A stretch of DNA of 64,000 nt from Candidatus Buchananbacteria bacterium. Its GTDB lineage: Bacteria; Patescibacteriota; Patescibacteriia; 2-01-FULL-39-33. The translations under genes and the position numbers were made by a program. Position 1 is the stretch's first letter, and each line of letters begins with the position of its first letter. A model generated the notes under the pieces. The model worked only from the letters and a program-made list of their open reading frames with translations, was not told where the DNA came from and did no database searches. The stretch lies in contig JAUSEE010000002.1 of assembly GCA_030650095.1 (NCBI GenBank), positions 6,711 to 70,710 of the forward strand, given 5' to 3'. Shown here in pieces: positions 1-49,134 of this stretch.

Positions 1-39
1 AATAAAATTGATGCCGCTCGGGTAATAACTGGGCGGTTT

Positions 40-75
40 TTTTATAATGTTGCTGCCCAATAGGCAGGCAATGGA
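40..75 (-). repeat. Partial copy of R2 repeat family (window edge)
   Basis: 'ttataatgttgctgccc' matches the terminal segment of R2 copies at 43067, 45968 and 48234; preceded by a GC hairpin plus T-run. Confidence 0.3.
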
Positions 76-91
76 TCCCTCGACTGCGCTC

Positions 92-196
92 GGGATGACA
101 ATGAAGAAGAACGTCATTGCGAGGCACGAAGCAATCCCATAGTTGTAGAGTACGAGGTTGCTTCCCCCGCATCAAGTGCGGGGTCGCAATGACAGG
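92..196 (+). repeat. Family-1 nested-palindrome element, copy 1
   Basis: gtcattgcgag...gaagcaatcc...gtacgag gttgcttc...ccccgcatcaagtgcgggg tcgcaatgac: outer 10-bp inverted repeat enclosing two inner hairpins. Confidence 0.7.
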
Positions 197-218
197 AATA
201 AAGAGTTTAGTTGGGATG

Positions 219-1052
219 TTAAACGGCGGCGTCTTTGAGCGAGGCTTTTTTGAGATCTTCGTAAATGCCGCCTTTAATGTTGATTCGGCCAAAAGCCAAA
301 AAGAATAAGCTCAAGGAAGCGTAAAAGAAAAAGTGACTCAAATACATCACCTGGTGAAGCGGAAAATTAAGATTGGACTCTAGAAACTCGTAAAAAATAT
401 ATGGCACAGTCGAGAGCATGATCATAATAATGGAAGCATGCAATAATCTGGTGAAGCCAGTTGAGATGGACACATGTTTGCCAATTCGGTTTATTTTCAT
501 CATGGCTATCAAACCTAGTAAAAAGATTATGGCTGTGTAGACATAAGGTGTTGGATTATCCAATTCCAGCGACATCAATTCTCTTTTGGTTGTTAAGACG
601 AAAATTAAGACAATCAAAGCGGCAATTAAGCCGATCAGAACATTAATCTGAATCAACGATCGTCTATCGTGAACTCTAAGGAAGGCATCAGCGCCGATTA
701 TTATCAGCATCAGGCTTATTAGATAGAAATTGGCGGTATTGATAAGGACAGAATCAGAATAATAGACAAAAGCACCCATGCTCATACTGAAATATTCAAC
801 AATATGCGAAAGGGCAAAAACAAACAGAGCGGCCAAACTGGCCATGAAGAATTTTTCTAGGATGGGATCAAAAGAATAATAGCGGACAAAAATCCTTATT
901 ATAGACAAGGCGATAAACAAAATAGCGATCATATGTATAATTCCGTACATAAAAAACAATTGACCGGTAAGCTCGGCTATGAGGATAACCGCTAAATTGA
1001 TGGCTATGAGTACCAAGGGACTAAAAATTTTTTCAATTTTTTCTTTGTTCAT
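219..1052 (-). CDS. Polytopic integral membrane protein, function unknown
   Basis: 277-aa ORF with ~8 hydrophobic helices; no recognisable catalytic motif. Confidence 0.45.
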   Translation of the reverse strand: MNKEKIEKIFSPLVLIAINLAVILIAELTGQLFFMYGIIHMIAILFIALSIIRIFVRYYSFDPILEKFFMASLAALFVFALSHIVEYFSMSMGAFVYYSDSVLINTANFYLISLMLIIIGADAFLRVHDRRSLIQINVLIGLIAALIVLIFVLTTKRELMSLELDNPTPYVYTAIIFLLGLIAMMKINRIGKHVSISTGFTRLLHASIIMIMLSTVPYIFYEFLESNLNFPLHQVMYLSHFFFYASLSLFFLAFGRINIKGGIYEDLKKASLKDAAV

Positions 1053-1146
1053 ATGATTTATTATTTAATGATTTATTAATTATACCATATTGTTTGGGCA
1101 TTTAAATGGGCTATCAACCAGGGATATTCTGCTGGTTTTTATTTTC

Positions 1147-1229
1147 GTCATTGCGAACGTAGTGAAGCAATCCCATGGCTATAGAATACGAGATTGCTTC
1201 CCCCGCATCAAATGCGGGGTCGCAATGAC
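1147..1229 (+). repeat. Family-1 nested-palindrome element, copy 2
   Basis: gtcattgcga acgtagt gaagcaatc ccatggctatagaatacgag attgcttc ccccgcatcaaatgcgggg tcgcaatgac; same architecture as copy 1. Confidence 0.75.
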
Positions 1230-1300
1230 AAGAATATAACACTTGACAGACATGTTAGAATAATATAACATTAAGATAGTTAGAAATAATTAACAAAAAC

Positions 1301-1687
1301 ATGACCCAAAAACAATACAAAATCTGCAGCTTGGCTATCGTTATAGCTCTAAGCTTTTCCGTCAGCCTTTCTGTCACTTTAAACAATTATTATCTGCCGG
1401 CAATTTTTATTTTGAGCGCAGTGGCGGGCATGTATTACTGTCGCAAACAGCTTAAAACCAATAATGTTTTGGCTGATGAGCGTGATTATCAAATATCCGG
1501 CCAAGCTGCTCGCTATAGCATTTACATCTACAGCTGGCTGGGCGCTATTGGCACATTGGCTTTGATGGCCATATCCGAGAAAGATGGCGTGTTGTATGTT
1601 TTAAGCCAATATTTGGCTTTCAGCGTTTGTTTTCTACTTTTAGTGAATGCTTTTTTGTTTAATTATTTAAGCAAACGAGGCAAGTAA
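1301..1687 (+). CDS. Small membrane protein (DUF2178-like partner of XRE regulator)
   Basis: 128 aa, 3-4 TM helices; its stop abuts the start of the downstream HTH gene (TAATATG), a conserved membrane-protein/XRE pairing. Confidence 0.45.
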
Positions 1688-1688
1688 T

Positions 1689-1877
1689 ATGAGAAACAAT
1701 ATAAAAGAATTTAGGCAGAAACTGAATCTAACCCAAGAGGAACTGGCTCGGCTAGCGGGGGTGCGTCGGGAAACCATTGTTTTTTTGGAACAGGATAAAT
1801 ATAATCCGTCTTTAAAATTAGCCTACAATGTCGCCAAAGCTTTGAAAACCAGCATAGAAGAAGTTTTTATTTTTTAA
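1689..1877 (+). CDS. XRE-family helix-turn-helix transcriptional regulator
   Basis: 62 aa; [41 protein letters not shown] is a classic Cro/C1 HTH. Confidence 0.7.
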
Positions 1878-2001
1878 ATATTTCAAAAAACTGTTACAAC
1901 TTGACATTTTTCTTTAAAAAGTGTAAAACATAGGGGCAGTATGAATGCTTTTCGAGTTTGATCTTTATAATATTTTACAAAAAACCACAAGGAGAGATGG
2001 A

Positions 2002-2529
2002 ATGAAGCTTTATGTTAATATTCTATTGGTTTTGGTAATAGCCATAGTTATTGTTAAGTTAATGGTTACACCTCAAACACTTTTTGTCGAAGAAGAAATC
2101 ACCCCGGCATTTGTTCAACAAATGGAGGATGGCTTTAAAAGAACCTATCCGAAGGCCATGGAAGTCGCTTGGGGGACATTGGAAGCTGATGGGCAAAAAA
2201 TTAACTGGTACTCTTATTGGATATCGGGCTACGACCAATTGCAGTTTTTTCTTGATAGTAAGCTCAGTTCAGAAACATGTGCCAAGTTGGAAAAGACAAT
2301 CCAGCGTATCCAACCTCCCTATGAGGAAGATCCTCGCGTCATGCAGTATCGCAGGAAGTCGGTTAACGGCGAGCTGTGGGTGGAATTAGAATCTCCGGCC
2401 ACTTACTTTTATTTTCGTTTCAGCAATCTTGATTTGTTTGATGCTCAGGCAAAACTGGCTTGGGTATTTTTAGAACTATCCAGAGACGGGGTTGTGGATG
2501 ATTACAGCATAGAGAAGCGGTATCTGTAA
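2002..2529 (+). CDS. Hypothetical membrane-anchored protein
   Basis: Start chosen at ATG 2002 (MKLYVNILLV..., preceded by AGGAG); single N-terminal TM, no known motif. Confidence 0.4.
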   Translation: MKLYVNILLVLVIAIVIVKLMVTPQTLFVEEEITPAFVQQMEDGFKRTYPKAMEVAWGTLEADGQKINWYSYWISGYDQLQFFLDSKLSSETCAKLEKTIQRIQPPYEEDPRVMQYRRKSVNGELWVELESPATYFYFRFSNLDLFDAQAKLAWVFLELSRDGVVDDYSIEKRYL

Positions 2530-2574
2530 ATGCCAGAGGTAATCTAAAACAGCCCGAAAAGGAAAGCCAAGATC

Positions 2575-3630
2575 ATGAAACAAAAGCCAGGCTTTACGCT
2601 AGTGGAACTGCTTGTAGTGATTGCCATCATCGGCATTTTGGCGGCGGTTCTCTTGCCGGCTCTGGCGCGAGCGCGTGAGGCGGCCAGGCGTGCCAGTTGC
2701 GCCAGCAATCTTAAGGAGTGGGGACAGATTTTTAAAATGTTTGCCAGCGAAGCGCCAAAAGGAGAACTGCCCAGTATTGGCGGAATTCTTTTTACAGCCT
2801 CGCCCAATGCTTTCCAACTCTACCCTGATTATTGGACGGATGAGAAAATTTTGGCTTGTCCATCGGATAGTTTTTCCTCTCGATTTTTTCATACGCCCGA
2901 TCCTTTGGGCGACATTAACCAAGTGAGGCAATATTGTCCGCCGGGTCCGGCTTTGCCATCAATTATGAGCGTGCCCATTTCCTACTGGTATAGCGGTTTT
3001 GTCATACCAAGCGTTTGGGATTTTATGGGTTATGGTTTGATTATCAGGGATTATATCAGCCGTTTGTCGCCAAGTTTGTTTACAACTTCCAGCGGAACGA
3101 TTGATTTTGTTTATTGTGATCCGGCTATGAGAACTAATTTTGGCAGTATGTGGATCTGGGCCTCAATCGGCATGGATTATGATTTATCCAAATCATCGGT
3201 AGAAGAAAAGGCGAATGGCTATTCGCGCGTGGACTGGGAAGAAGTGGATTACTGGTTGAGCCAAGGGGGCAAGTCCATTAATTCGTGGACATTACCTCGT
3301 TTGCGTGAAGGCATCGAGCGCTTCCTCATTACCGATATCAATAATCCGGCTGCCAGCTCACTGGCACAAAGTTCTATTGATGTTATGTGGGACATTTGGG
3401 GCGATACAGCCGGTTACAAAGAATTGGCGCCCACCGGTCAAAACTTAGGCGGATCTTTCAATCACGTTCCCAGTGGCAGTAATGTTCTTTATTTGGATAG
3501 CCATGTCGAGTACAAGAAATTCAAATCCGGCTACCCTCTGAGCGCCGGGAATATAAACCAAAACGGCACGCTACTGGAGCAAGCCAATTATCTTATGGGA
3601 TTTTACATCGCTACCAGCGCAGCTTGGTGA
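2575..3630 (+). CDS. Prepilin-type N-terminal cleavage/methylation domain protein of DUF1559 (H-X9-DG) type
   Basis: N-term [30 protein letters not shown] (class III signal, G-F-T-L-x-E) followed by [21 protein letters not shown]; C-terminal [11 protein letters not shown] region; GC-rich 5' third. Confidence 0.6.
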
Positions 3631-3685
3631 TCATTTAACTTTAAGTAATGATTAATCGCAAAAATAAATAATTTTTATCCACACC

Positions 3686-3716
3686 AGACAGAGTATAACT
3701 CTGTCTTTTTCAATTT
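3686..3716 (+). terminator. Rho-independent terminator after the DUF1559 gene
   Basis: agacagag tataa ctctgtct followed by ttttcaattttt. Confidence 0.55.
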
Positions 3717-3759
3717 TTGCCCGTATTTTGGGGCGATATTTTTTTATTTCCTACTTATT

Positions 3760-3789
3760 TTGCTGACACTTTTATTTTATGATATTATG
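3760..3789 (+). promoter_or_regulatory. Candidate sigma70 promoter of nrdJ
   Basis: TTGCTG - 17 nt - TATTAT about 35 nt upstream of the nrdJ start. Confidence 0.3.
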
Positions 3790-3821
3790 ATAGAACTTTA
3801 ATAAATAACTTTATAAATATT

Positions 3822-6185
3822 ATGGGGGATAATTCAAATAACTGGCTCGGTTCCGAGGCCAGTGTTTTAGAATCTAATAAAGTTGCCAAAATAAGGAAAA
3901 GAGACGGCCGAATTGTTGATTTTAATAAGGATAAGATAAAACAGGCCATTATTAAGGCCTTTACCGCCTCCAATAATTATGATTATGAACTGGTAGACAG
4001 GCTGGTTGTGAGTGTGGTTAACATTTTAAACAACCGCTACGGGCTAGAAAACATACCTTCTATCGAAGATATCCAGAATATCGTAGAAATCATCCTGATT
4101 CATAACGATCTGCCGGCGGTAGCCAAAAATTACATTATTTACCGTGAAGAAAGATCCAAATCGCGTGAAAGGCAAAAGGCTATTTTAGACGGTTTAACCA
4201 CCAGCTTGCCTTATTCTGATAACGCCCTGAAGGTTATGGCCAAAAGGTATTTAAAAAGGGATCAGGATGACAAAGTTATTGAAACTCCCGAGCAAATGAT
4301 GGAACGGGTATCCCTGGCTTTGGCGGAAGTGGAGAAGAAATACGGCAAAAATGACGAGCAAGTGGCGCGAGTGAAAGACAGTTTTTATGAGGTTTTAAGC
4401 AAATTTGAGTTTACCCCGGCCGGACGAACCCTAAACAACGCCGGCACCGATTTACCGGTGGTGGCCAATTGCATTGTCTTAAATATCCAAGATTCCATGG
4501 ACAGTATTTTTGATACCCTCAAAGACGCCGCTCTTTTACAGCAGTCCGGCTCCGGCTTGGGCTTTCCTTTCCACACCCTAAGGCCGGCCGGTTCTCGGGC
4601 CAAAAAATCACGCGGGGTGGCTTCCGGGCCGGTTTCTTTTCTGAAAGTCTATGATCGGGCCTTTGGCGTGATAAAACAGCAGAATCGCCACGGCGCCAAT
4701 ATGGCAGTGATGAATGTGGAGCATCCGGATATTTTGGAGTTTATCCATTGCAAAGCCCGGGAAGGCGAGATTAAGAATTTTAATATTTCTGTGGGCTTAA
4801 CCGATAGGTTTATGGAAGCGGTGGAAAAAAACGATCCCAACACTTGGGTGCCGCGCTTCAACGGCCAGGATCATTCCTTGCACAGAGTGGTACGCGATGA
4901 GCAGGACACTATTTTGGACATCGTGGAAGAAAAAATGACCGCTCGCGAGATTTTTCAAGAAATCATTTCGGCCGCTTGGTCCAACGGCGAGCCGGGCTGT
5001 GTTTTCTTGGACACGGTGAACAAGGTTAACCCTTTGCCGGGCTTGGGCCGGATAGAAGCCTGCAACCCCTGCGGTGAGCAATTCTTGCACGATGGCGATG
5101 TCTGTAATTTGGGTTCTATTAATTTGGAAAAATTTGCTAGTAGCGGCGAAGTGTTGTGGGACAGATTGAAAGAAGTTACCAAAATAGCCGTGCGCATGCT
5201 GGACAATGTCACCGATATCACTAAGTACCAATCAGAAAAAGTAAATCAGGTTTCCAAAGACAATCGGCGTATCGGCTTGGGCATCATGGGCTTTGCCGAC
5301 ATGCTTTATAAACTGGGCATTGGCTACAACACGCCCGAAGGCTTTGCTATGGGCGAAAAAATAATGAAAACCATCCAGGATTCCTCTCACCAGATGTCTC
5401 AAGAATTAGCCGACGAAAAAGGACTCTTTAAAAATTATAATCATTCCGTTTACCCAGGCAGGAATGTCAGAATGAGAAATGCCGCCCTCACCAATATCGC
5501 CCCGACCGGCACGATTTCCATGACCATGGATGTCTCGGGCGGAGTGGAGCCTTATTTTGCCTTGGCCTATTATTACAAACATGTTTTGGGAGGCGATGTG
5601 GAGCTTATTTATTTCAACAAGCATTTGGAAAAAACCTTAAAGGAACAAGGCTGTTGGTCGGAAACAGTTAAACAGCAAATAATCCAAAACGGCACCCTGC
5701 AGAATGTGGCCGGCATTCCGGAAAATATCAAAAAAATATTCGTTACTTCCATGGATATTTCCGCCTCCGATCATATTAAAATGCAATCGGCGTTCCAAAA
5801 ATATTGCGACAACGCTATTTCTAAAACTGTTAACTTCCCTTATTCGGCCAGCAAAAATGACGTGATGGAAGGCTACCTGATGGCTTGGAGAATGGGTTGC
5901 AAGGGCTGTACTGTTTATCGCGACGGCTCCAGGGACAAGCAAATACTCAATATCGCCAAAGACAAAGAAACCAGCGAACCCTTAAACCCCAACGCCGGTT
6001 TAACCGATGAAATGCCCATGGTTAATACCGGCAATGTGGTTACTTCCGGCTTTAGTCCTCTTAAGCCTAATGATAAAAATGGAGTCATAGCCGGCGGAAT
6101 TTGTCCGGAATGCGGGGGATCGCTTATGATTTTAGAAGGTTGTTATACTTGCTCCAGTTGCGGAGTTAGCGCCTGCTCTATTTAA
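3822..6185 (+). CDS. nrdJ: Adenosylcobalamin-dependent (class II) ribonucleotide reductase with N-terminal ATP-cone and C-terminal Zn-ribbon
   Basis: ATP-cone VAKIRKRDGRIVDFNKDKIKQAI; RNR core with active-site Cys in CNLGSINL and a second conserved Cys in EACNPCGEQ; C-terminal CPECGG...CYTCSSCG. Confidence 0.9.
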   Translation: MGDNSNNWLGSEASVLESNKVAKIRKRDGRIVDFNKDKIKQAIIKAFTASNNYDYELVDRLVVSVVNILNNRYGLENIPSIEDIQNIVEIILIHNDLPAVAKNYIIYREERSKSRERQKAILDGLTTSLPYSDNALKVMAKRYLKRDQDDKVIETPEQMMERVSLALAEVEKKYGKNDEQVARVKDSFYEVLSKFEFTPAGRTLNNAGTDLPVVANCIVLNIQDSMDSIFDTLKDAALLQQSGSGLGFPFHTLRPAGSRAKKSRGVASGPVSFLKVYDRAFGVIKQQNRHGANMAVMNVEHPDILEFIHCKAREGEIKNFNISVGLTDRFMEAVEKNDPNTWVPRFNGQDHSLHRVVRDEQDTILDIVEEKMTAREIFQEIISAAWSNGEPGCVFLDTVNKVNPLPGLGRIEACNPCGEQFLHDGDVCNLGSINLEKFASSGEVLWDRLKEVTKIAVRMLDNVTDITKYQSEKVNQVSKDNRRIGLGIMGFADMLYKLGIGYNTPEGFAMGEKIMKTIQDSSHQMSQELADEKGLFKNYNHSVYPGRNVRMRNAALTNIAPTGTISMTMDVSGGVEPYFALAYYYKHVLGGDVELIYFNKHLEKTLKEQGCWSETVKQQIIQNGTLQNVAGIPENIKKIFVTSMDISASDHIKMQSAFQKYCDNAISKTVNFPYSASKNDVMEGYLMAWRMGCKGCTVYRDGSRDKQILNIAKDKETSEPLNPNAGLTDEMPMVNTGNVVTSGFSPLKPNDKNGVIAGGICPECGGSLMILEGCYTCSSCGVSACSI

Positions 6186-6196
6186 GTGTCACTTTG

Positions 6197-6268
6197 ATCC
6201 GCCCTGGGCGGAGAAGCAATCTCGTGTTTGATATTTGTCATTCCGACCGCAGTGGAGGAATCCCTTGG
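6197..6268 (+). repeat. Family-1 element, degenerate copy 3
   Basis: gatccgccctgggcgga gaagcaatc ... tgtcattccgaccgcagtggaggaatccc; shares 'tccgccctgggcggagaagcaatc' with the copy at 10220. Confidence 0.45.
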
Positions 6269-9043: not shown

Positions 9044-9072
9044 TATTTAGAATAGTTGTAGATAATAAAAAT

Positions 9073-9216
9073 GTCATTGCGAGCCTGCCTGTCGGTAGAC
9101 AGGCTTGCGAAGCAATCCCACGGCTGTAGGATACGAGATTGCTTCTCCGCCTTCGCGAGGACTCGCTTGAGCTTCCTCGCAATGACAAGAATAAAGAGCT
9201 CATTCACAATGACATT
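9073..9216 (+). repeat. Family-1 nested-palindrome element, copy 4 (extended)
   Basis: gtcattgcgag + extra hairpin cctgcctgtcggtagacaggc + gaagcaatcc..gatacgag attgcttc ... ctcgcaatgac, then a second ...caatgaca. Confidence 0.75.
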
Positions 9217-9524: not shown

Positions 9525-9544
9525 TGCCATTATTAGGCCTTACT

Positions 9545-9643
9545 GTCATTGCGAGCCTGCCTGTCGGCAGACAGGCTTGTGAAGCAATCCTATGGTTGTA
9601 GGATACGAGATTGCTTCGGTCGCTGTGGCTCCCTCGCAATGAC
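9545..9643 (+). repeat. Family-1 nested-palindrome element, copy 5
   Basis: gtcattgcgag cctgcctgtcggcagacaggcttgt gaagcaatcc tatggttgtaggatacgag attgcttc ggtcgctgtggctcc ctcgcaatgac. Confidence 0.75.
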
Positions 9644-9672
9644 AAGTAGAATCACTATAAATAGCAAAAGTC

Positions 9673-9718
9673 GTCATTGCGAGCCTGCCTGTCGGCAGAC
9701 AGGCTTGTGAAGCAATCC
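9673..9718 (+). repeat. Family-1 element, 5' half only (copy 6)
   Basis: Identical to the first 46 nt of copy 5, truncated 27 nt before the receiver gene start. Confidence 0.65.
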
Positions 9719-9744
9719 ATATTTATTAATTAAAATATAACATC

Positions 9745-10113
9745 ATGAAGAAAAAGATATTAATAGTGGAAGATGACAATTTTTTACAAAAAGCCCTGGG
9801 GCATGCCTTGTTAGAGAATGATTTCGATATTATTTCGGCTGTAAGCGGCGAGCAAGCAGTTCCCTTGGCTAAAAACGCTAAACCGGATTTGATTCTACTG
9901 GATATAATTTTGCCCAAAAAAGACGGTTTCGTGATAATGGAGGAATTAAAAAATGATTCGGCCATAGCTTCCATACCGGTAATATTTATCACTAATCTGG
10001 GGCAGAAGGAGGATGTTAAAAAAGGCTTGGATTTGGGAGCAAAAGGTTATATTATCAAAGCTCATTTTAAGATAGCTGATATTATTGATAAGATAAATGA
10101 AGTTTTAAAATAA
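9745..10113 (+). CDS. Single-domain response regulator (receiver only, CheY-like)
   Basis: ILIVEDD...LILLDIILPKKDGF...KGYIIK; no output domain. Confidence 0.85.
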   Translation: MKKKILIVEDDNFLQKALGHALLENDFDIISAVSGEQAVPLAKNAKPDLILLDIILPKKDGFVIMEELKNDSAIASIPVIFITNLGQKEDVKKGLDLGAKGYIIKAHFKIADIIDKINEVLK

Positions 10114-10130
10114 TAATCACATAATCATAA

Positions 10131-10250
10131 AATACGAGATTGCTTCGTTGCACTTTGTTTCGCTCGCAATGACAAGGATATAGAACTCCCTCGCAATGAC
10201 AGGAAAGAACGTCATTGCGATCCGCCCTGGGCGGAGAAGCAATCCCATGG
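10131..10250 (+). repeat. Family-1 element fragments (3' half + 5' half, rearranged; copy 7)
   Basis: aatacgag attgcttc ... ctcgcaatgac ... ctcgcaatgac ... gtcattgcga tccgccctgggcgga gaagcaatccc. Confidence 0.6.
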
Positions 10251-10286
10251 TTATAAAGCACTTACTATTAATGCAATTATAAGTAT

Positions 10287-10661
10287 ATGAAAAAAATTTT
10301 AGTCATAGAAGACGACAATATACTGCAAAGCGCTATCTCTACTGCTCTAAAAGATGCCGGTTTTAGCACGGTTCAATCTTTTGACGGCGTAGACGGATTA
10401 AAAAAAGCCAAGAAAAACAATATCAATTTAATTTTATTGGATTTACTTATGCCCAAAAAAGACGGCTGGGAAGTTTTAAAAATGCTTAAAAAAGATAATA
10501 AAACCAAGAATATTCCGGTTTTTGTCTTAACAGTTTATGAGGGCGAGAACAGCATTTCTAAGTGTTTGTCTTTGGGCGCCAAAGGTTATTTTATCAAATC
10601 AAAATATTCGCTGGATGAAATAATAAAAAATATAAAAAATGAAATTGGCAAGGCTAAATAA
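10287..10661 (+). CDS. Single-domain response regulator (receiver only)
   Basis: ILVIEDDN...LILLDLLMPKKDGW...KGYFIK. Confidence 0.85.
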   Translation: MKKILVIEDDNILQSAISTALKDAGFSTVQSFDGVDGLKKAKKNNINLILLDLLMPKKDGWEVLKMLKKDNKTKNIPVFVLTVYEGENSISKCLSLGAKGYFIKSKYSLDEIIKNIKNEIGKAK

Positions 10662-10808: not shown

Positions 10809-11465
10809 TTGATAATTTTTATGTTTAGAAAATATTTCATTATTTTAACCGTTTATTTAATCGGTTTGGCTTCTTTGGCGATCATAGTGGCTTGGATTTT
10901 TGATATTACTGTGGTTTTATCTATTTTGCCTGGCTTTATCACTATAAAATTCAGTACCGCCTTAGCTTTCTTTTTAAGCTCGCTTATCTTGTATTTTGCT
11001 TATTATTCCCCTCAAGGCAGGTTTGCCAATCTGAATTTAATTATTGTTTCATTTTCCATCTTAATTATTTGGATTATGATGATAACAATTTTAGTTTCTA
11101 TTATTTTTGGTTTCAAAAGCGGTATAGAAAATTTGTTTATTATTGATACAACCATAGCTACTAACCCCTATGTACCCGGGAGACCATCACTAGGCACTAT
11201 AGTCGCTTTTTTACTCATTACCATTTTAGGCCTTAATATTTTTTACGAAGGAAAGTGGAAAAATCAGCTATTTTTATTTCTTGGATCTTTAGTGTTTCTA
11301 ATCGGAGCAGTGTCTAAGATCGGCCTAATATTGGCCGTGCCTGTTTTGTATTATGACGTTCCTTCTATTAGCAATGCTATTTCCATACCGGCCAGCATTC
11401 TTTTTATGTTTATCGGGCTGGCCTTTTCTCTGCTTTATAAAATAAATCCCAAACGCCAAGCATGA
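10809..11465 (+). CDS. Polytopic membrane protein translationally coupled to the downstream histidine kinase
   Basis: 218 aa, ~6 TM helices; its stop overlaps the HK start (ATGA at 11462-11465). Confidence 0.5.
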   Translation: MIIFMFRKYFIILTVYLIGLASLAIIVAWIFDITVVLSILPGFITIKFSTALAFFLSSLILYFAYYSPQGRFANLNLIIVSFSILIIWIMMITILVSIIFGFKSGIENLFIIDTTIATNPYVPGRPSLGTIVAFLLITILGLNIFYEGKWKNQLFLFLGSLVFLIGAVSKIGLILAVPVLYYDVPSISNAISIPASILFMFIGLAFSLLYKINPKRQA

Positions 11466-13684
11466 AATTATTCACTCAATTAGTTACATTATTCATAGGC
11501 TTAACCCTTATTCCTTTAATATTTGTCGGCTTGCTTACTTATGCCAATACCAAAGGCGTTATTACTGATCAGATAATGGCTCAGTTGGTTTCTATTGCTG
11601 ATATTAAGAAAAATCAGATGAACCAGGTTATTGATGCTTATCTGGCAGATGTGGAAGAGTTAGCTTTACGAAATTATTTGCGCCTTAATTTAGAGGAGTA
11701 TAATCAAAATCCCACCATCGAACTGGCCTCGTCTATTGAAGCTAATATTTTCGATAGCTTGATATCTTCCCCTGAAATTGTTTCTATTGCCATTAAAGAT
11801 TCAAAAGGAAAAACAGTAGCTTCTGTGGGGGATGATTATGTGGAGCCGTTAGTAAACACAAAACAGTCGCCGGCTATAGAGAATATTTTTATGAATAGCC
11901 AAGGCATTCCTCGCGTTTTGCTTAGAAGTCCTATTATTGTAAATAATTCTACTATCGGATCCGTTGAGGTAGTAAGCAAAATTGATCCCTTTCGTATAAT
12001 AGCCGGTGATTATTCGGGCTTAGGCCAGTCGGGCGAGGTTTTAATAGCCAAGAAAAACGAAGCTGGTGATGCTCTTTTTTTAACGCCCATACGCTTTGAT
12101 CAAGGTGCCGCTCTAAAGCGGATTGTTAAAAAAGACAGAACCGATGTACCCTCTACCCATGCTGTTTCCGGCGAAGAAGCCTTTTTTCTGTCTGGCATGG
12201 TTGATTATCGCGGGGTTCCTGTTTTGGCGGTTACCAGGTTTATTGACAGACAAGGTTGGGGTATTGTGGTTAAAATAGATCGTGATGAAGTTTTTCAGCC
12301 ACTTACCAGCATATTGTTAACCTTTATTGTCATTATCACTACCACCCTTTTAGCGGTTGTTTTAGTAGCGGTTTTTGTGGCGCGCGCCATAACCAAGCCA
12401 ATCAGTCAATTATCCCAGGCGGCTGGAAAATTATCCCAAGGCAATTTTACCGCGGCTATAGAAATCATAAGTTATTATCCCAGCAATGAAATAGGCGTAA
12501 TGGCTAAGGCTTTTACTAAAATGGCATCCCAACTCAAAGAATTATACAGAAATTTAGAGGCCAAAGTGAAAGAGAGGACGCATGATTTAGAAAAATTCGA
12601 ATTGGCTGTGGATAGCGCCTATGATCAAATAGTTATTACTAATCCCGATGGCTTGATCTTGCATGCCAACAAATCCATAGAAAGGATTACCGGTTTTAAA
12701 TTAAAAGAGGTTTTAGGCCGGAAAGTCGGATCAAGGGAATTGTGGGGTGGACAAATGGGACCGGATTTTTATAAAAAATTATGGAAAACAATCAAAATAG
12801 ATAAAAAAACTTTTTCCGGAGAATTAATAAACCATCGCAAGAACGGTGATAATTATAATGTGCTGGTTAGGATTTCGCCGGTTTTGGATGATAAAAACCG
12901 GGTTGTTTATTTTGTGGGCATTGAAAGGGATATTACCAAGGAAAAAGAAGTGGATAAAATGAAAACCGAATTTGTCTCGGTGGCTTCGCATCAGCTTAGA
13001 ACGCCACTCACTGCCATTAGGTGGTATGTCGAGGAAGTTTACAACGGTGAACTGGGCAAGTTAAATAAAAATCAAAAAGATTATCTTAAACAGATACTGG
13101 AATCAAATGAGAGGATGATCAGGCTGGTTAATGATCTCTTGAATGTTTCCAGATTGGAAAGCGGTCGGGTAACTGTTGAACCTGTTTTAACTGATTTAGT
13201 TGAATTGATTGGCACCGTAGTTAACGAATGCGGTATATTAGCTAAGGCTAAAAATTGCCAATTGAATTTTATCAAACCAAAAAGCAAGATATCCAAAATA
13301 AAAATAGACCCAGTTTTAATCGCGCAAGTTATAAATAATTTGGTTTCCAATTCCCTTAAATATTCCAAGTCCAGCGGTGAAAAATGTTCAGTGGTAATTG
13401 ATTTGTCTAAAAAAGACCCAAATGTTATCATTAGCGTAAAAGATAACGGCATTGGCATACCTTCTGGTCTTCAGAATCGTGTTTTTGATAAGTTTTTTAG
13501 GGCCGACAATGCCATTAAATCAGAAACCGAGGGCACCGGCCTGGGTCTTTACATTTCCAAGATGGTGGTGGAAGCATCGGGTGGAAAAATCTGGTTTGAA
13601 TCCAGCGAAGATGGAACAACTTTCACTTTTACCTTGCCGCTCTCTGGCAGTCCGGCGCGCAAAGGTGAAAAAGGCTTATCTTAA
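11462..13684 (+). CDS. Membrane sensor histidine kinase (extracytoplasmic sensor domain, HAMP, PAS, HisKA, HATPase_c)
   Basis: N-terminal TM + ~280-aa periplasmic-like domain + second TM; SHQLRTPLTAIRWYVEEV H-box; GTGLGLYISKMVV G2 box. Confidence 0.85.
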   Translation: MKLFTQLVTLFIGLTLIPLIFVGLLTYANTKGVITDQIMAQLVSIADIKKNQMNQVIDAYLADVEELALRNYLRLNLEEYNQNPTIELASSIEANIFDSLISSPEIVSIAIKDSKGKTVASVGDDYVEPLVNTKQSPAIENIFMNSQGIPRVLLRSPIIVNNSTIGSVEVVSKIDPFRIIAGDYSGLGQSGEVLIAKKNEAGDALFLTPIRFDQGAALKRIVKKDRTDVPSTHAVSGEEAFFLSGMVDYRGVPVLAVTRFIDRQGWGIVVKIDRDEVFQPLTSILLTFIVIITTTLLAVVLVAVFVARAITKPISQLSQAAGKLSQGNFTAAIEIISYYPSNEIGVMAKAFTKMASQLKELYRNLEAKVKERTHDLEKFELAVDSAYDQIVITNPDGLILHANKSIERITGFKLKEVLGRKVGSRELWGGQMGPDFYKKLWKTIKIDKKTFSGELINHRKNGDNYNVLVRISPVLDDKNRVVYFVGIERDITKEKEVDKMKTEFVSVASHQLRTPLTAIRWYVEEVYNGELGKLNKNQKDYLKQILESNERMIRLVNDLLNVSRLESGRVTVEPVLTDLVELIGTVVNECGILAKAKNCQLNFIKPKSKISKIKIDPVLIAQVINNLVSNSLKYSKSSGEKCSVVIDLSKKDPNVIISVKDNGIGIPSGLQNRVFDKFFRADNAIKSETEGTGLGLYISKMVVEASGGKIWFESSEDGTTFTFTLPLSGSPARKGEKGLS

Positions 13685-13711: not shown

Positions 13712-14092
13712 ATGGCCAAGAAAAAATCATACAAAATCCTGGTAGTGGAAGATGAACCGGCTCTCCAGCAAACATTGGGGGATAAAATCAAACGCGAGGG
13801 TTGGGAGTATATCCCATCTTTAAACGGCGAAGAGGGCTTAAGGACGATTAAGAAATCACAGCCTGATTTGATTATTTTGGATTTGCTTATGCCCAAAATG
13901 AGCGGATTGGAGATGTTAAAAGAAGTGCGAAAAATTTATGATAAGCAGGATTTGCCGGTGATAATTTTGACTAATTACAGCGAAGGCCAGAATGTCAGCG
14001 AAGCCATAGCTTTGGGAGCTGATATTTTCCTAGTTAAAGCCAATTATTCCCTGGAAGAAATTATTGAAAAGATAAGAGAGGTTTTGGATTAA
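13712..14092 (+). CDS. Single-domain response regulator (receiver only)
   Basis: ILVVEDEPAL...LIILDLLMPKMSGLE. Confidence 0.85.
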   Translation: MAKKKSYKILVVEDEPALQQTLGDKIKREGWEYIPSLNGEEGLRTIKKSQPDLIILDLLMPKMSGLEMLKEVRKIYDKQDLPVIILTNYSEGQNVSEAIALGADIFLVKANYSLEEIIEKIREVLD

Positions 14093-14113
14093 ATAATAAT
14101 ATCTACATCAGAA

Positions 14114-14506
14114 GTGATGATAGCAGAGAACAAAATAAAACCGGATTGTAAGATTTTATTAGCCGAAGGCGACAGATTCTTATCGAAAGTTATCAGCAAT
14201 AAGCTGCTGCGGCGCGGTTTCTGCCTGTCTTTGGCTAATGACGGCTTGGAAGCTATGGCTAAAATAAAGACCGAACAGTTTGATTTGGTTTTACTGGATT
14301 TAACTTTAAGCAAGAAAAACGGCTTGGAAGTTTTGGCCGAATTAAAGAAAGATAAGAAATTAAAAATAAAAATCGTGGTTTTGTTAAGCTTAAGCAAAAC
14401 CAGCGACATAGAAAAAATAAAAAAATTAGGCATTACCGATTATATTATTAAAAGTGATTTGTCTATAAATACGCTGGCGGATAAAGTGGGAGAATTGATC
14501 AAATAA
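14114..14506 (+). CDS. Single-domain response regulator (receiver only, divergent)
   Basis: KILLAEGD...LVLLDLTLSKKNGLE...DYIIKS. Confidence 0.8.
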   Translation: MMIAENKIKPDCKILLAEGDRFLSKVISNKLLRRGFCLSLANDGLEAMAKIKTEQFDLVLLDLTLSKKNGLEVLAELKKDKKLKIKIVVLLSLSKTSDIEKIKKLGITDYIIKSDLSINTLADKVGELIK

Positions 14507-14603
14507 CAAAAAAGAAGGGGGGATAGCGCTGGTAGCTATTTTTATGTTATAATTAAAAAGCATATTTGTATGCTTAATTTTAGAAAGTAAATAAAAATAG
14601 ATT

Positions 14604-14999
14604 ATGCTGGGCCTAAAAAAACAAACAGCTAACAAGAAAGTCTTGCTGGTAGAGGATGATTCCCTTCTGGCTAACATATTAATGGATTCACTGGTTCGCG
14701 AAAAGTTTGACGCCGTTAACATAAAAGACGGCTTAGGGGTAATGGAGGCGGCTCAAAAGTTTAAGCCCGATATTGTTTTATTGGATTTGATTTTGCCGGG
14801 CCTGGACGGCTTTGAAGTCCTGAGGCAACTGAAAGCTGACAGCAAATTGAAAAGCGTGCCGGTTTTTATAATCTCTAATTTAGACAGCATTTCTGAGGTT
14901 AAATCGGCCAAAGCTTTGGGGGCGGAAGATTATTTTATCAAAGCCAATACCGATATAGAAAAAATCATAAAAGTAGTCAAAAAACGAATTAATAAGTAA
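14604..14999 (+). CDS. Single-domain response regulator (receiver only)
   Basis: VLLVEDDS...IVLLDLILPGLDGFE...DYFIKA. Confidence 0.85.
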   Translation: MLGLKKQTANKKVLLVEDDSLLANILMDSLVREKFDAVNIKDGLGVMEAAQKFKPDIVLLDLILPGLDGFEVLRQLKADSKLKSVPVFIISNLDSISEVKSAKALGAEDYFIKANTDIEKIIKVVKKRINK

Positions 15000-15058
15000 T
15001 ACCTATGCCACTAAGCGCGGATAAGGAGGAAAAAAAGCCCAGCGTAAAAGGAAACAAG

Positions 15059-15415
15059 ATGATTCTGATAGTGGAAGACGATCAGGTTCTTTTGAGGGTG
15101 ATGTATCTGTTTTTAAAGAGAAGATCCGGTTTTGCCATAGCTACCGCCAGCGATGGCGATACGGCCTTGAAAATGGCCCAAAGGCTTAAACCGAATGTTA
15201 TTTTATTAGATCTGATTCTGCCAAAAATGGATGGTTTTTCGGTCTTAAAATCACTTAAATCCGATCCGATGATGAAAGACATACCAGTGATAGTTTTATC
15301 CAATTTGGGGGATACCGGCGACATTGATAAAGCCAAAGATCTGGGCGCGGCTGATTATTTTGTCAAAGCCAATACCGATTTAGCCGTTATTTTGGAAAAA
15401 ATAAAAAATTATTAA
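15059..15415 (+). CDS. Single-domain response regulator (receiver only)
   Basis: Start moved to ATG 15059 (MILIVEDDQ, AAGGA 8 nt upstream); VILLDLILPKMDGFS...DYFVKA. Confidence 0.8.
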   Translation: MILIVEDDQVLLRVMYLFLKRRSGFAIATASDGDTALKMAQRLKPNVILLDLILPKMDGFSVLKSLKSDPMMKDIPVIVLSNLGDTGDIDKAKDLGAADYFVKANTDLAVILEKIKNY

Positions 15416-15424
15416 TTTAACCAT

Positions 15425-16249
15425 ATGCTCCAAACTCGTTGGTTGAATCTGGTGCTTCTGCTGACCAACAGGATTTATGAGCAAAAACAACAAGTTATCA
15501 GGAGGTCTGGCCTAAGTGCCATACTTAATGTTTTCAATTTGGTTTTACTAGAGCTTTTCTTGGGTCTAATTTCCTTCCCGCTTTATCTGGGCATGAGAGC
15601 CGGAAAAGTCTCTACTTTTTTGGAGGATAAAAGCGGTTATGAAAAAATAACTTTTGATTATAACTTACGCCGCGTCCTGACTTTAACCAGCGCGAGCGTT
15701 ATTTTTTTTATTTGGCTGGTTAAGCTTTCGGTGATTGTCTTGGCGCCCACTTTTTTCGGGCCGATACAGCTTTATTCGGTTTCTGATTTGAGGCCGGTGG
15801 ACCTCTTGGAAAAAGAAATAATCGTGGCCGAAACTCGTATTCAGACAGCCCGGGTTTTGGATCAAATGACTGTGCCCGAGCTTAAAAAAGTGGATAAATT
15901 AAGAGGCGGCAATTATCGTTTTTACGGCACCGGCCAGCCCCAAACCAAGGTAGTTTTACTGGTGGCTGATACTCAAACGCTTATTTTAATCGGCGATACT
16001 GACGATAAAGGCAATTGGCAGGTGGATTTAATTAGAAGTGAATTCAAATTAAGCGCAGGCAACCATTCCGTTTTGGTTTTTAATTTTGATGAAGCTAAAG
16101 AGGTTCGTAGCCAAGTATCATACAAGCAATATTTTAAATCAAAAGATACTCTAATTGATCAATTGGTAAAGAACACTGATATTTTTATCAATTCATCAAT
16201 AATAATCGTTATAATCTTGGGCATTCTCTTAACTGTCTTAACTCTTTAA
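15425..16249 (+). CDS. Membrane protein whose N-terminal ~60 aa are paralogous to the N-terminus of the downstream giant protein
   Basis: MLQTRWLNLVLLLTNRIYEQKQQV...LELFLGLISFPLYLGM versus MSERWLNLFLKLSGFIFNTKQKV...FELGFAIISLPMYLIV in the 16254 ORF; C-terminal TM. Confidence 0.5.
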   Translation: MLQTRWLNLVLLLTNRIYEQKQQVIRRSGLSAILNVFNLVLLELFLGLISFPLYLGMRAGKVSTFLEDKSGYEKITFDYNLRRVLTLTSASVIFFIWLVKLSVIVLAPTFFGPIQLYSVSDLRPVDLLEKEIIVAETRIQTARVLDQMTVPELKKVDKLRGGNYRFYGTGQPQTKVVLLVADTQTLILIGDTDDKGNWQVDLIRSEFKLSAGNHSVLVFNFDEAKEVRSQVSYKQYFKSKDTLIDQLVKNTDIFINSSIIIVIILGILLTVLTL

Positions 16250-16253
16250 ACAT

Positions 16254-19200
16254 ATGTCTGAAAGATGGCTCAATTTATTTTTAAAGCTCTCCGGTTTCAT
16301 CTTTAATACCAAACAGAAAGTGGTGAAGGCTGATAATTGGGTGATGGTTATTCCTCATGTTTTGGTTATTATAGTTTTTGAGCTGGGTTTTGCCATTATT
16401 TCTTTGCCCATGTATCTGATTGTTTCTCCTAAGGCAGTCCAGGAAAGAGGCTTTATTTTTCCCATGGGGGAAGGGGAAAAAAGCGACAAAAAAGATGTGA
16501 TTCGCGTTTATACTGCCAGAAGGAGAATCAGCCTAACTACCGGGGCTGGCGCCGGCACATTTTTTGTTTTAAAAATTTTGCTTATTGTTTTTACTTCGCT
16601 TTATCTTTTGGGCGCTCAAAAACTGTTGGCTGCTACCCAGGATTGGACTTTTGACACGGCCGGCGATTACACCTATGACAGCGCCAAAATAGAGGTGACT
16701 GGCGGCGTAGGACGGTTAAAAAATATCGGCAGCGCTACTTCCGGCTCTACCACCAATTCTGCTTTTACCAGTGACGCTACCGATTGGACTTATGCCGATT
16801 GGCTTAATAACGCTGGCGCTAGCGGGGCTTATTCTTCCACTGGCGGCAATACCGGAGGCAATGTGCAAATTACTTTAAGTTCGGCAAAAAATAAAACCAC
16901 TGCCGGTTTGTATAGGCAGTCATTTACGACAACTGTTGATTCTCCGGATACAGCCACTTTGAATTTGGATTGGTCATCAATCAGCTATTCGGTGCCGGCC
17001 CCCTTTGATACTTACCAGCTTTACGCTTTTATTGATACGGCCAGTGGCGATCCGACATTGGGACAGCAGGTCTGGAGCAGCGGTGAAATTACCGGCACGA
17101 CCGCTTGGGCGAGCAGCGCCACCATTGATATTACCAGTAAGGTTCCAACTGCTGACACTTATTACTTAAAAATCGTCGCTTATCATGATACGCCCGGCAC
17201 TACTGGCACATACACTACTGTAGCCGGTTTTGATAATGTGGTTGTTAATTGGTCTAAAACCACCGTGCTTTATGCTTCTGATAGGCCAACTATTAATCCA
17301 ACCACTTCCTTGAGTAATGAATTTGTAACTACTTGGGATTCCTTTACTGAAACAGCCACCAAAAACGGCGGTGAAATCTATTATCAATTATCCAATGATG
17401 ACGGCGCAACTTGGCAATATTGGAACGGCAGCGCCTGGGCGACAGCCGGAGCCAGCAATTACAACACCGGCTCGGTTATAAATACCAATATAAGCACTTT
17501 CGGCGTTACCAACCATAAAATAAGGTGGAAAGCATATTTAGAAAGCAACGGCAGCCAACAGGTCATACTTGATAATGTCAATATCGGTTATACCGAAAAC
17601 GATCCGACTCATGTCCAAAACTTATCCCCAGCGCAAAACACCACTTCCGGCTTAATGCATGTTAATTATGAATTAAAGGATGATCAAAGCGATCCGGCTT
17701 CGCTGGTGGTTTACGAATATTCTTTAACCGGCGCCTTTAGTGGTGAACAAACAACTATGACTGCTTCCACTACTGATGCCAGCCATAATGGCGTGTCCGG
17801 ACTCTCCAGTTCGCCGACCGGTGTGGCTCATACCTTTGTCTGGGACGCTCAAACTCAAATCGGCGCTATTTATGATGCATCTGTTTATGTTCGGTTGCGG
17901 GGTAGTGACGGCATCAATGTCGGTGATCATACCACTTCTACCGCTTTCGCCGTGGATTATGTGGTGCCGGTAGTTACAAATGTCAGCGCTTCTCAAGTGT
18001 CTGGTTCTACTAATGTCACTATAACTTATGATTTAGCCGATGATACTTCGGATAATTTGTTGGTGGAATTAGGTATTTCCAATGATGGCGGTAGCACCTG
18101 GGTAGTGCCGACAGTTACTGCTTCCGGACATGTCGGTTCCGGAGTGACAGCCGGCACCGGCAAATCCATTACTTGGAATGCCGGCACTGATTATGATGAG
18201 CACCAGCAGAGCACTATGCAAGTTAGAGTGAGAGCTAAAGATAAATATCAAAACCAAGGTTCTTATGCTTCTTCGGCTAATTTCACTTTAGACACTTTAA
18301 ACCCGGTTACCAATGCCACCTCTAATTTACAGGCCCAGCCTAATGCCGGAGATACCACGGTTTCCATTAGCGGTTCCTTTACCGAAGCTAATCCTAATAC
18401 TAATGATTTTTATGCGGCTCTAAATGGCGGAGCTTACTCTTCGGCTACAGCCGGCGCATCTGATACGGTAACGCCCGGCACTCAATCAACAGCGGTGGGC
18501 GTCACTTTGGACGGCAATGATTATATCTCCGGCGTCAAAATCACCCACACTGATGATTTCGGCCAAGCGACTGATAACGAAAACACTTCTCCTAATACGG
18601 CTTACAAATACGTTAAGCCTTACACTCCGCAAGCTCCGACCTTGGATAATCCGGTAACCACCAGATTGGACTTAACTATTAATCCGCATGCTTCAGAAAC
18701 TAGTGGTTTAGATTATTTAATTCAAGAAACCACCAGCGGCAATTATGTCCAGGCTGACGGCACTTTGGGCGCCAGCGAGGTTTGGCAGGTAATGGGCACC
18801 GGCAGCGGACAGTGGGGCAATAACACCAGCGTTAGCGGCAAAGTAAGAATTACTGGTTTAAGCTCACCGGTGGCTAATTATATTTTTAAAGTCAAATCAA
18901 GAAATAATAGTGATACTGCTCATGCCGCATCTTCTGAATCAGCTTTCTCCTCTACCGCTCAAATTACCAATACCGCGCCTTCCATCGCCTTGGGCAGCGT
19001 GGCGCAAACCACCGATGGCACGCGTTATGTGCCTGTAAATTATACCGGCACAGACGGCCAAGGTGATTTAAATGATATAACCGTTTATGAATATTCCACT
19101 GATAATTCCGCTTGGAACACGATGACGGAAAAGAGCGGTGTCGGTTCTGAGGGCTTGGCTGATTTGGTTTTCTTATCCGGCGGCAGCGCTCATAATTTTG

Positions 19201-35468: not shown

Positions 35469-35535
35469 GTCATTGCGAGGGACGAAGCAATCCCAGGCGA
35501 TATAAACATAAGATTGCTTCGTACCTCGCAATGAC
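35469..35535 (+). repeat. Family-1 nested-palindrome element, minimal copy 8
   Basis: gtcattgcgag ggac gaagcaatcc caggcgatataaacataag attgcttc gta cctcgcaatgac. Confidence 0.7.
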
Positions 35536-49132: not shown

Positions 49133-49134
49133 AG

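Follow-up and report, generated by a model that had tools for sequence, protein, structure and literature searches.

A divergent prepilin-like gene of the DUF1559 / H-X9-DG-like superfamily, probably acquired horizontally, in a Candidatus Buchananbacteria genome

Introduction

Where does the prepilin-like gene just upstream of nrdJ in a Candidatus Buchananbacteria genome come from, and what may its product do? The gene occupies positions 2575..3630 on the plus strand of a 64,000-nt stretch of DNA, called the window here, which belongs to a metagenome-assembled genome (MAG) of this lineage of the Candidate Phyla Radiation (CPR/Parcubacteria) and contains 52 open reading frames (ORFs) of at least 120 aa. 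An original prediction had described the product as a Planctomycete-type DUF1559 (H-X9-DG) prepilin and its gene as a likely horizontal acquisition.

In this study, the gene is found to be a divergent member of the known prepilin-type DUF1559 / H-X9-DG-like superfamily in an unusual host phylum. Its horizontal acquisition is well supported by sequence comparison, through four independent lines: distribution, synteny, codon choice and a GC-rich 5' end. For the explanation as a whole, that is, a horizontally acquired type IV pilin-like (pseudopilin-like) gene together with the display and binding mechanism proposed below, we estimate a probability of about 60%.

Results and Discussion

A class III prepilin leader on a genuine ORF

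The ORF is genuine and encodes 351 aa. Its translation begins with the N-terminus quoted earlier and contains the 21-residue stretch reported together with it. An identical protein is already on record from a Candidatus Buchananbacteria MAG, where it is encoded on a 115-kb contig and annotated as 'type II secretion system protein', and the nrdJ product of the window also shows 100% identity to a Buchananbacteria record. Both identities assign the window to a CPR/Parcubacteria genome. The gene and its parts are listed below, with GC3 standing for the GC content of third codon positions.

2557..2565 (+): Shine-Dalgarno-like AAAGGAAAG, a putative site read from the sequence, with its end 9 nt upstream of the ATG (11 nt for the AGGA core)
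2575..3630 (+): gene of the prepilin-like protein, from a divergent DUF1559-like / H-X9-DG-like subfamily (ORF; full-length homology to PF07596-bearing proteins)
2575..2592 (+): leader peptide MKQKPG, a class III signal (PF07963, TIGR02532), with predicted prepilin-peptidase cleavage at G6/F7
2593..2751 (+): pilin helix alpha-1, residues 7-59, with the AREAARRxSC block and C42 (AlphaFold model; PDB matches)
2608..2727 (+): GC-rich segment, codons 12-51 (GC 0.62, GC3 0.68)
2752..3627 (+): globular domain, residues 60-351, subfamily-specific, with a conserved 18-residue block and a C-terminal helix (alignments, model)
3460..3501 (+): degenerate H-X9-DG-type motif, N296 H297...D308 S309, aligning with FNHVPGGSNVLYMDGHVEF of the homologues
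3686..3716 (+): terminator-like hairpin (3686-3706; 9-bp stem, 3-nt loop) and T-run, in a 120-nt region that folds with z = -3.5
3717..3746 (+): another terminator-like hairpin (3717-3736), weaker than the first, and T-run (hairpin prediction)

The leader MKQKPG is followed by FTLVELL and is recognised by PF07963 (N_methyl) with 35.2 bits against a cut-off of 21.2, and by TIGR02532 with 32.5 bits against a cut-off of 16.3. It is short and basic, with Gly at position -1, Phe at +1 and Glu at +5, and the corresponding residues G6, F7 and E11 are invariant among 118 homologues. The class III leader claimed for the protein is thus confirmed by both models. A motif coding for GFTL(I/V)EL occurs twice in the window, once in this gene and once in the gene of a GspH-like pilin, one of the three pilins of the type IV pilus cluster described below. 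The window contains no large paralogous family, and the prepilin-like gene is single-copy there.

The public annotation points to a bona fide component of a type II secretion system (T2SS), namely the major pseudopilin GspG. A weak match to TIGR01710 (GspG) over residues 6-105 and the GspG structure 5wda, which matches the N-terminal helix, are in favor of this assignment. However, the TIGR01710 score of 36.7 bits is far under the cut-off of 88.85, all equivalog pilin models remain far below their cut-offs on the query, and the protein, with 351 aa, exceeds GspG in size about 2.5-fold. The annotated ORFs of the window include no genes for the secretin GspD, GspK or GspL. Since an outer membrane is generally considered to be absent from CPR bacteria, a classical T2SS is not expected in them. 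We regard a genuine GspG as highly improbable.

Membership in the DUF1559 family in a loose sense

The DUF1559 model PF07596 (SBP_bac_10) gives the query 17.5 bits, which is below its gathering score of 23.3, and the match is confined to residues 32-48, corresponding to profile positions 2-18. Of the two Pfam models by which the original prediction was to be checked, N_methyl thus passes and PF07596 does not. Searches for full-length homologues revealed about 118 proteins with E values from 1e-67 to 1e-54, 41-44% identity and 89-100% coverage. They are collinear with the query, and nearly all of them carry PF07596 in precomputed annotation, with scores of 30-49 bits and matches to only profile positions 2-39 of 268. 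The protein can therefore be called a DUF1559 protein on the strength of full-length homology to PF07596-bearing proteins, but the domain model itself reaches only a short stretch of it at a sub-threshold score.

A similar situation is found at the C-terminus, where an H-X9-DG segment had been proposed. TIGR04294 (H-X9-DG; cut-off 19 bits) gives no match to the query at E <= 1, but passes with 22-27.5 bits in all five homologues tested (P0002, P0004, P0013, P0016 and P0241). The 11-residue segment quoted earlier as the motif is rejected, since the alignment places the homologous site elsewhere, at N296-H297-X10-D308-S309. The spacing from His to Asp is ten residues, not nine, across the whole subfamily. 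Both H297 and D308, which are invariant in the family, are present in the query, and G300 and G309, conserved in at least 90% of members, are changed to Ser. The motif of the query is a degenerate one, with DS in the place of DG.

The best hhalign alignment of the subfamily to the canonical Planctomycete DUF1559 proteins covers residues 3-72 only, and the profile-profile alignment to the proteins of Verrucomicrobiota and Lentisphaerota covers residues 1-103. Judged from these alignments, the subfamily has the helix extension and the C-terminal motif in common with DUF1559, but possesses a central domain of its own, which is marked by an LYPxYWTD...CPSD block and a conserved 18-residue block. 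The DUF1559 / H-X9-DG label applies to the query only in a loose sense.

Distribution and phylogeny of the homologues

Among 5.8 billion proteins, the best full-length relative of the query shows 44% identity. The sole sequence closer than 46% is P0241, a 281-aa fragment with 55% identity over query residues 73-351, located on a 1.2-kb contig of JGI sample 3300042731. A scan of metagenome contigs with the alignment of the query and P0241 found no further close relatives and one N-terminal match only. An exhaustive HMMER scan of 1.84 billion representatives yielded 821 cluster representatives at E <= 1e-30. With the globular domain alone as query, 3,605 proteins were retrieved at E <= 1e-10, including one fragment with 54% identity, the other matches having at most 38%.

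Taxonomic labels of these homologues are heavily skewed. Among the matches listed from species-representative genomes, 17 loci match most or all of the protein, and these comprise 12 from Hydrogenedentota, three from MAGs labelled Nitrospirales/Nitrospiraceae and two from 'uncultured bacterium'. All named matches in the protein searches are from Hydrogenedentes or Nitrospiraceae. No CPR-labelled homologue occurs among the matches listed from three database searches and one genome scan. In the loci from Planctomycetota, Verrucomicrobiota and Lentisphaerota, the match is limited to the first ~50-100 residues, and tblastn to the Planctomycetota loci covers residues 1-80 only.

A neighbour-joining tree with 100 bootstraps was constructed, in which 16 sequences from Planctomycetota, Verrucomicrobiota and allies (PVC) were included. 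The query and P0241 are paired with 100% bootstrap. The pair is placed inside a clade of 57 sequences with 99% bootstrap, which takes in every Hydrogenedentota, Nitrospirales-MAG and unnamed sequence of the tree and none of the 16 PVC sequences. The protein does not nest within Planctomycetes or Verrucomicrobia, and the description as Planctomycete-type has to be given up: the PF07596 and TIGR04294 thresholds are missed, the clade is without Planctomycetota, and the hhalign alignment to the canonical family does not go beyond the N-terminal part.

These results bear on the possibility of vertical inheritance, according to which the gene would be ancestral in the CPR lineage, would have been lost from the sampled relatives, and would owe its composition to its amino-acid content. 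The closest sequence, P0241, is a fragment without a taxonomic label, which leaves room for such a history. The zero count of CPR-labelled homologues and the nesting of the query in a Hydrogenedentota-dominated clade speak against it.

A variable slot upstream of nrdJ

Comparison with the nrdJ loci of related Buchananbacteria defines the following features around the gene.

1068..3738 (no strand assigned): variable slot with four genes (DUF2178, HTH, 194-aa hypothetical and prepilin-like) and the terminators (blastn)
3763..3791 (+): promoter-like site of nrdJ, CTGACA-17-TATGAT, in the region that is conserved in relatives from 3739 onward
3822..6185 (+): nrdJ, present downstream as predicted, 192 nt from the prepilin-like gene

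Related Buchananbacteria contigs carry nrdJ orthologues of 82-86% identity; the value falls to 72% on a 710-kb contig and to 66% at greater distance. Against this, the prepilin-like gene has nothing above 44-55% identity anywhere searched, and tblastn of the query on the related Buchananbacteria nrdJ loci (five contexts) found no relative. In the closest relative (L085/L086), blastn matches window 250-1067 to L085 7650-8472 and window 3739-6185 to L085 9919-12361. The left homologous block is a minus-strand membrane-protein gene, and the right block starts 83 nt before nrdJ, just past the hairpins. Between the two blocks, the 2.7-kb slot of the window is replaced in the closest relative by an unrelated 1.45-kb block with a 94-aa ORF and a short-chain dehydrogenase gene. 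Downstream of nrdJ, a BtuR/CobA-like gene followed by PAS-histidine kinases and response regulators is conserved in all relatives; upstream of nrdJ, the gene content is different in every relative.

This hotspot (window 1-3738 compared with L082-L088) reaches back to dnaG-rpoD in three relatives. Its cargos in the relatives are glycosyltransferases; NYN and short-chain dehydrogenase; patatin, HTH and thioredoxins; and MarR, LUD and ABC transporters. The fast turnover upstream of nrdJ in all relatives would make the loss of an ancestral gene easy, and in this respect it favors vertical inheritance.

A gene of foreign composition in a MAG may also result from assembly or binning, by which a foreign fragment would have been misjoined into the CPR contig. 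The gene is indeed unlike its neighbours in composition. However, it lies inside a 115-kb contig, with a gene of 72% aa identity to the relative's gene within 1.5 kb on its left flank and nrdJ at 0.2 kb on its right. Moreover, a separately assembled Logan contig (run SRR13727527) is 100% identical over window 1-6263 and possesses the same junctions, and the composition of the gene body is near that of the host, unlike a fresh contaminant from a ~60% GC genome. A chimeric assembly is very unlikely, because Buchananbacteria genes are close on both sides and the Logan contig has identical junctions.

The 194-aa hypothetical gene of the slot (1945-2529, +) has one predicted transmembrane segment and no Pfam match. 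It ends only 45 nt upstream of the prepilin-like gene on the same strand, and neither a promoter nor a terminator was predicted in this 45-nt gap. Since both are found in the same variable slot, the 194-aa gene may have arrived with the prepilin-like gene, and it may be co-transcribed with it; no homologue of it was found in any fetched locus. The claim that the prepilin-like gene sits alone, with its own terminator, thus holds on the downstream side, where the two hairpins are found, but not on the upstream side. Co-transfer was further examined by looking for homologues of the DUF2178, HTH and 194-aa genes beside DUF1559-like genes, and none was present in any fetched locus. As for repeats bounding the slot, a palindromic repeat is found at the left edge only.

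Codon usage and GC content

The synonymous codon use of the 52 ORFs was compared by a likelihood test that is independent of amino-acid content. The prepilin-like gene is the second most codon-atypical ORF with z = -4.4 (-4.1 when a 3,190-aa ORF is left out of the background), and the upstream 194-aa gene is the third with z = -3.1. In local GC and codon usage, the gene can therefore be distinguished from its neighbours.

The first ~200 nt had been described as GC-rich, and codons 12-51 indeed show GC 0.62-0.63 and GC3 0.68 in a window with a GC of 0.40 (40%). Under host codon usage, the same codons would be expected to have GC 0.53 and GC3 0.47. For the whole gene, the observed GC of 0.477 compares with 0.458 expected from the amino acids. 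The corresponding segment in low-GC homologues (L004, L006) has GC 0.42-0.45 and GC3 0.33, and in homologues of GC-rich genomes it has GC3 0.7-0.95. Because the low-GC homologues encode the segment at such a low GC3, the 5' GC richness is not an inherent property of the family and is not required by the protein sequence, and an explanation from family identity or from Ala/Arg content is ruled out by this control. A DNA identity to homologues of only 70-78% over the first ~150 nt speaks against a recent gene conversion of the 5' end.

A donor-like codon table fits the segment better than the host table does (+0.21 per codon). The gene body is fitted better by the host table (-0.235), although this preference is weaker than in the median host gene (-0.44). 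Its GC3 of 0.49 lies between the host mean of 0.41 +/- 0.04 and the 0.6-0.9 of GC-rich homologues, which suggests partial amelioration of the gene toward the host composition. The codon use of the 5' segment, on the other hand, resembles that of a source richer in GC.

Part of the GC excess is dictated by the amino acids, as the expected values for codons 12-51 and for the whole gene indicate, and to this extent the composition conforms to vertical inheritance. The atypical synonymous choice is independent of amino-acid content, however, and the low-GC homologues encode the same segment without GC richness. Taken together with the distribution, vertical inheritance appears unlikely. Horizontal acquisition, as originally predicted, is supported by the absence of the gene from the nrdJ loci of relatives, its position in a replaceable slot, its atypical codons and its nesting in a non-CPR clade. 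We propose that a single gene with its own terminator was acquired by the Buchananbacteria lineage and was inserted into the gene-turnover hotspot just upstream of nrdJ. The donor, probably an organism of higher GC, would have carried a gene from the Hydrogenedentota-type branch of this DUF1559 / H-X9-DG superfamily of prepilins. After its arrival, the gene would have diverged unusually far, and its composition would have shifted partly toward that of the host.

Sequence divergence and predicted structure

The alignment of the 118 members contains 91 columns with at least 90% conservation. The query deviates at eight of them (V10, V25, S44, E48, F56, S300, S309 and A350), whereas the 117 other members have a median of 1 deviation and a maximum of 6, which makes the query the most deviant of all. 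This divergence at conserved columns explains why the PF07596 and TIGR04294 models fail. P0241 retains both G300 and G309, and the two Ser changes are therefore specific to the query lineage. At the remaining 83 columns the query is unchanged, including all invariant Cys, Pro, His and Asp residues.

An AlphaFold model built with the 118-sequence alignment has a pLDDT of 85.7 (69.3 with a 23-sequence alignment) and a pTM of 0.86. A ~50-residue alpha-1 helix is predicted at residues 9-59 with pLDDT > 90, as in type IV pilins. It is followed by a mixed globular domain, which includes a small C-terminal sheet (269-273, 301-306, 311-315) bearing the H...D(G/S)H motif, and by a C-terminal helix at residues 333-350. 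Foldseek found no match to the PDB with either model, and a profile search of PDB sequences found only the N-terminal helices of pilins and GspG (GspG 5wda).

The strong divergence raises the possibility of a decaying passenger, i.e. a transferred gene that is useless in the new host and drifts toward loss. Its rank as the most deviant member, the two Gly-to-Ser changes in the hallmark motif and the failure of both family models would agree with decay, as would its singleton status in the window and its arrival without the regulator and the carbohydrate-active-enzyme neighbours of its homologues. Against this stand an intact 351-codon ORF with a canonical leader, a ribosome-binding-site-like sequence and a terminator, and the conservation at 83 of 91 columns. 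The confident fold prediction speaks against random drift, and useless DNA tends to be lost from small CPR genomes. Decay is possible but rather doubtful, and we continue to favor an acquired gene with a putative function at the cell surface.

Possible processing, display and role

48587-56367 (-): type IV pilus cluster with PilO, PilN, PilM, PilX-like, three N_methyl pilins, PilC and PilB (Pfam)

The cluster lies ~45 kb from the gene, in agreement with the original prediction, and may be regarded as a candidate assembly machinery for the prepilin-like protein; processing or export of the protein by this distant machinery is plausible. In a distant Buchananbacteria relative on a 710-kb contig (L087 13176-22382), genes for PilB, PilC, pilins and PilM are found directly downstream of nrdJ-btuR. 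In the window the cluster is 45 kb off and on the opposite strand, which indicates genome rearrangement between the lineages.

We propose that the pre-protein enters the membrane via its hydrophobic N-terminal helix, and that a prepilin peptidase encoded elsewhere in the genome would cleave after G6 and methylate F7. The mature protein would then remain membrane-anchored, with the ~290-residue globular domain outside the cell. Alternatively, it would be loaded into the pilus as a minor subunit by the PilB/PilC/PilM/PilN/PilO machinery. It would serve as a binding module, whose ligand would most plausibly be a carbohydrate. From processing to ligand, we infer these steps from the features described above, and the likely role is that of a peptidase-processed, membrane- or pilus-displayed binding protein.

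The putative ligand was deduced from the genomic neighbourhoods of homologues. The three closest full-length homologues on long contigs all adjoin a regulator with GntR and periplasmic-binding domains.

L090 8001-10120, L091 8001-8999 and L092 8001-9065 (no strand assigned): homologue loci beside GntR regulators (neighbourhood inspection)

Genes around these homologues encode GH172, FGGY kinase, GH38, sulfatase, MFS transporter and arabinofuranosidase, and L090 has two paralogues in tandem. Since these loci of the closest full-length homologues are sugar-regulated and serve carbohydrate utilization, a carbohydrate would be the likeliest ligand. This agrees with the Pfam name 'SBP_bac_10' and with the description of the DUF1559 family as solute-binding (PMC2754498). 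The gene contexts suggest a carbohydrate-related binding role of the subfamily as a lead only, since they are partly related and the pattern is missing at 11 named loci.

Several points weigh against the proposed origin and role. No donor has been identified, the best full-length match being only 44% identical. P0241, the 55% fragment, comes without context or taxonomy and may therefore itself be CPR-derived. The genome scan covered at most 600 pattern matches and most database matches are without an organism name, and the evidence for the absence of CPR homologues is accordingly strong but not exhaustive. The tree was built by a simple distance method, and the branching inside the 57-sequence clade is poorly resolved. 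The difference in GC3 between the 5' segment and the rest of the gene is modest (Fisher p = 0.028). No prepilin peptidase (Peptidase_A24) was found among the ~30 of 52 window ORFs scanned with Pfam. The changes G300S and G309S, which affect the most conserved motif, could denote an altered or decaying function. Two of the three carbohydrate contexts come from related organisms, so that there are about two independent contexts, and the GntR/carbohydrate link was not seen at the 11 named genome loci by BLAST and neighbour inspection, in which several naive ORFs in GC-rich DNA were spurious. The window gene is also without GntR or carbohydrate-enzyme neighbours.

A passage of PMC12102498, citing Xie et al. 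2022, attributes host adhesion in episymbiotic CPR bacteria to type IV pili, and an adhesin role of the protein is conceivable for this reason. It can be imagined that the CPR bacterium is an episymbiont that took over a carbohydrate-binding pseudopilin from a Hydrogenedentota-like organism, which may have been its host or a bacterium nearby, and that it now presents the protein on or through its type IV pilus as a new adhesin for a surface glycan, but we assign a low probability to this scenario. If it were true, the phylogenetic origin of the gene would point to the host of the Buchananbacteria lineage, and the function of the massively expanded DUF1559 / H-X9-DG proteins could be studied on a gene that occurs naturally as a single copy.

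The gene, a solitary copy captured recently by a minimal CPR genome, indicates that transfer of one gene is enough for the module to pass from phylum to phylum, and that the module is presumably useful with just a generic prepilin peptidase or type IV pilus apparatus. For CPR biology, it is an example of how the surface or pilus repertoire changes via gene capture at the hotspot upstream of nrdJ. Its practical importance is modest, as a secretion-system/pilin-like annotation already exists in public records and no new mechanism is revealed.

Other features of the window

Composite palindromic repeats were found in intergenic regions of the window.

104-200, 1137-1239, 6188-6233, 9064-9214, 9540-9663, 9672-9720, 10115-10252 and 35469-35535: palindromic repeat copies

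The units consist of outer inverted GTCATTGCGA / TCGCAATGAC and inner GAAGCAATC...GATTGCTTC around a GC-rich hairpin, and their 10-mer core has 14 occurrences against 0.07 expected by chance. Two copies flank a 277-aa membrane-protein gene, and one of these is located where the variable slot begins on the left. In the relative, a related element is found after nrdJ (L085 12668-12703). The family has no Rfam match and looks like a REP- or MITE-like (repetitive extragenic palindromic or miniature inverted-repeat transposable) element of the Buchananbacteria lineage. In the window as a whole, neither Rfam nor tRNA scans gave a match.

Further genes of the window are the following.

9745-10661 and 13712-15415 (+): six stand-alone response-regulator-like ORFs of 122-136 aa, around a histidine kinase
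11462-13684: histidine kinase with dCache/HAMP/PAS
15425-16249: 274-aa ORF, preceding the giant ORF and similar to it at the N-terminus
16254-25826 (+): giant ORF of 3,190 aa, with a transmembrane segment at the N-terminus and Big_13 Ig-like domains toward the C-terminal end
56496-57341 (-): 281-aa metallo-beta-lactamase-fold protein adjoining the pilus cluster
58721-60388 (-): 555-aa ORF with InlB B-repeat (Flg_new_2) domains

The assignment of the six response-regulator-like ORFs is based on their N-terminal sequences and on orthologous Response_reg genes in relatives, and palindromic repeats are found between some of them. The giant ORF probably encodes a huge surface protein. The 281-aa protein scores 98.7 bits against the model of the Anti-Pycsar Apyc1 family (cut-off 50), and it may be a homologue of cellular cyclic-nucleotide phosphodiesterases. 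The 555-aa ORF has GC 0.49 and GC3 0.52, and no other ORF of the window is as codon-atypical (z = -6.3, or -5.9 when the giant ORF is left out); it is a candidate for another horizontally acquired surface protein.

Comparison with known systems

Type IV pilins and T2SS pseudopilins (PilA, GspG, GspH, ComGC) resemble the query in the class III signal, the G-1/F+1/E+5 pattern and the long hydrophobic alpha-1, and dependence on a prepilin peptidase is presumed to be common to them. The globular domain of the query is, in contrast, 2-3 times larger and displays no detectable sequence or Foldseek similarity to solved pilins.

DUF1559 is the largest paralogous family in Planctomycetes, with 68 paralogues in Planctopirus limnophila and 74 in Rhodopirellula baltica (PMC10632474, PMC2754498). 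In P. limnophila, two of these genes are essential (PMC10632474). The literature on DUF1559 gives no function even for Planctomycetes, and nothing relevant was found on 'H-X9-DG'. The canonical Planctomycete proteins are similar to the query in the prepilin leader and the helix extension AREAARRxxCxNNLKQ, and a C-terminal motif of the H-X9-DG type occurs in the wider superfamily. They differ in that only residues 3-72 can be aligned and that they are placed outside the clade of the query, which is without paralogue expansion in the window. The TIGR04294-bearing H-X9-DG proteins of Verrucomicrobiota and Lentisphaerota share residues 1-103 with the LYPxY...CPSD block, the leader and the kind of C-terminal motif. 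However, they are ~240-280 aa in size, their central domain cannot be aligned, and they are also outside the 99% clade.

The Hydrogenedentota-type prepilin and H-X9-DG proteins (e.g. P0002-P0120, loci L001-L016; 'DUF1559 domain-containing') are collinear with the query over the full length, at 91-100% coverage and 41-44% identity. They have in common with it the leader, the AREAARRxSCxxNLK helix, the LYPxYWTD...CPSD block, the 18-residue block, the C-terminal NHVPxGSNVLYxD(G/S)HVE motif and the invariant C42 and C95. The query differs from them in its CPR genome, its single copy in the window, its position as the most divergent of 118 members, the change of DG to DS with the failure of PF07596 and TIGR04294, and, compared with the closest homologues, a neighbourhood without a GntR regulator and carbohydrate-active enzymes. 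The case is thus a clean, well-documented acquisition of a single gene into a CPR genome at a turnover hotspot, a fairly ordinary transfer of a member of a known superfamily and not a new kind of system.

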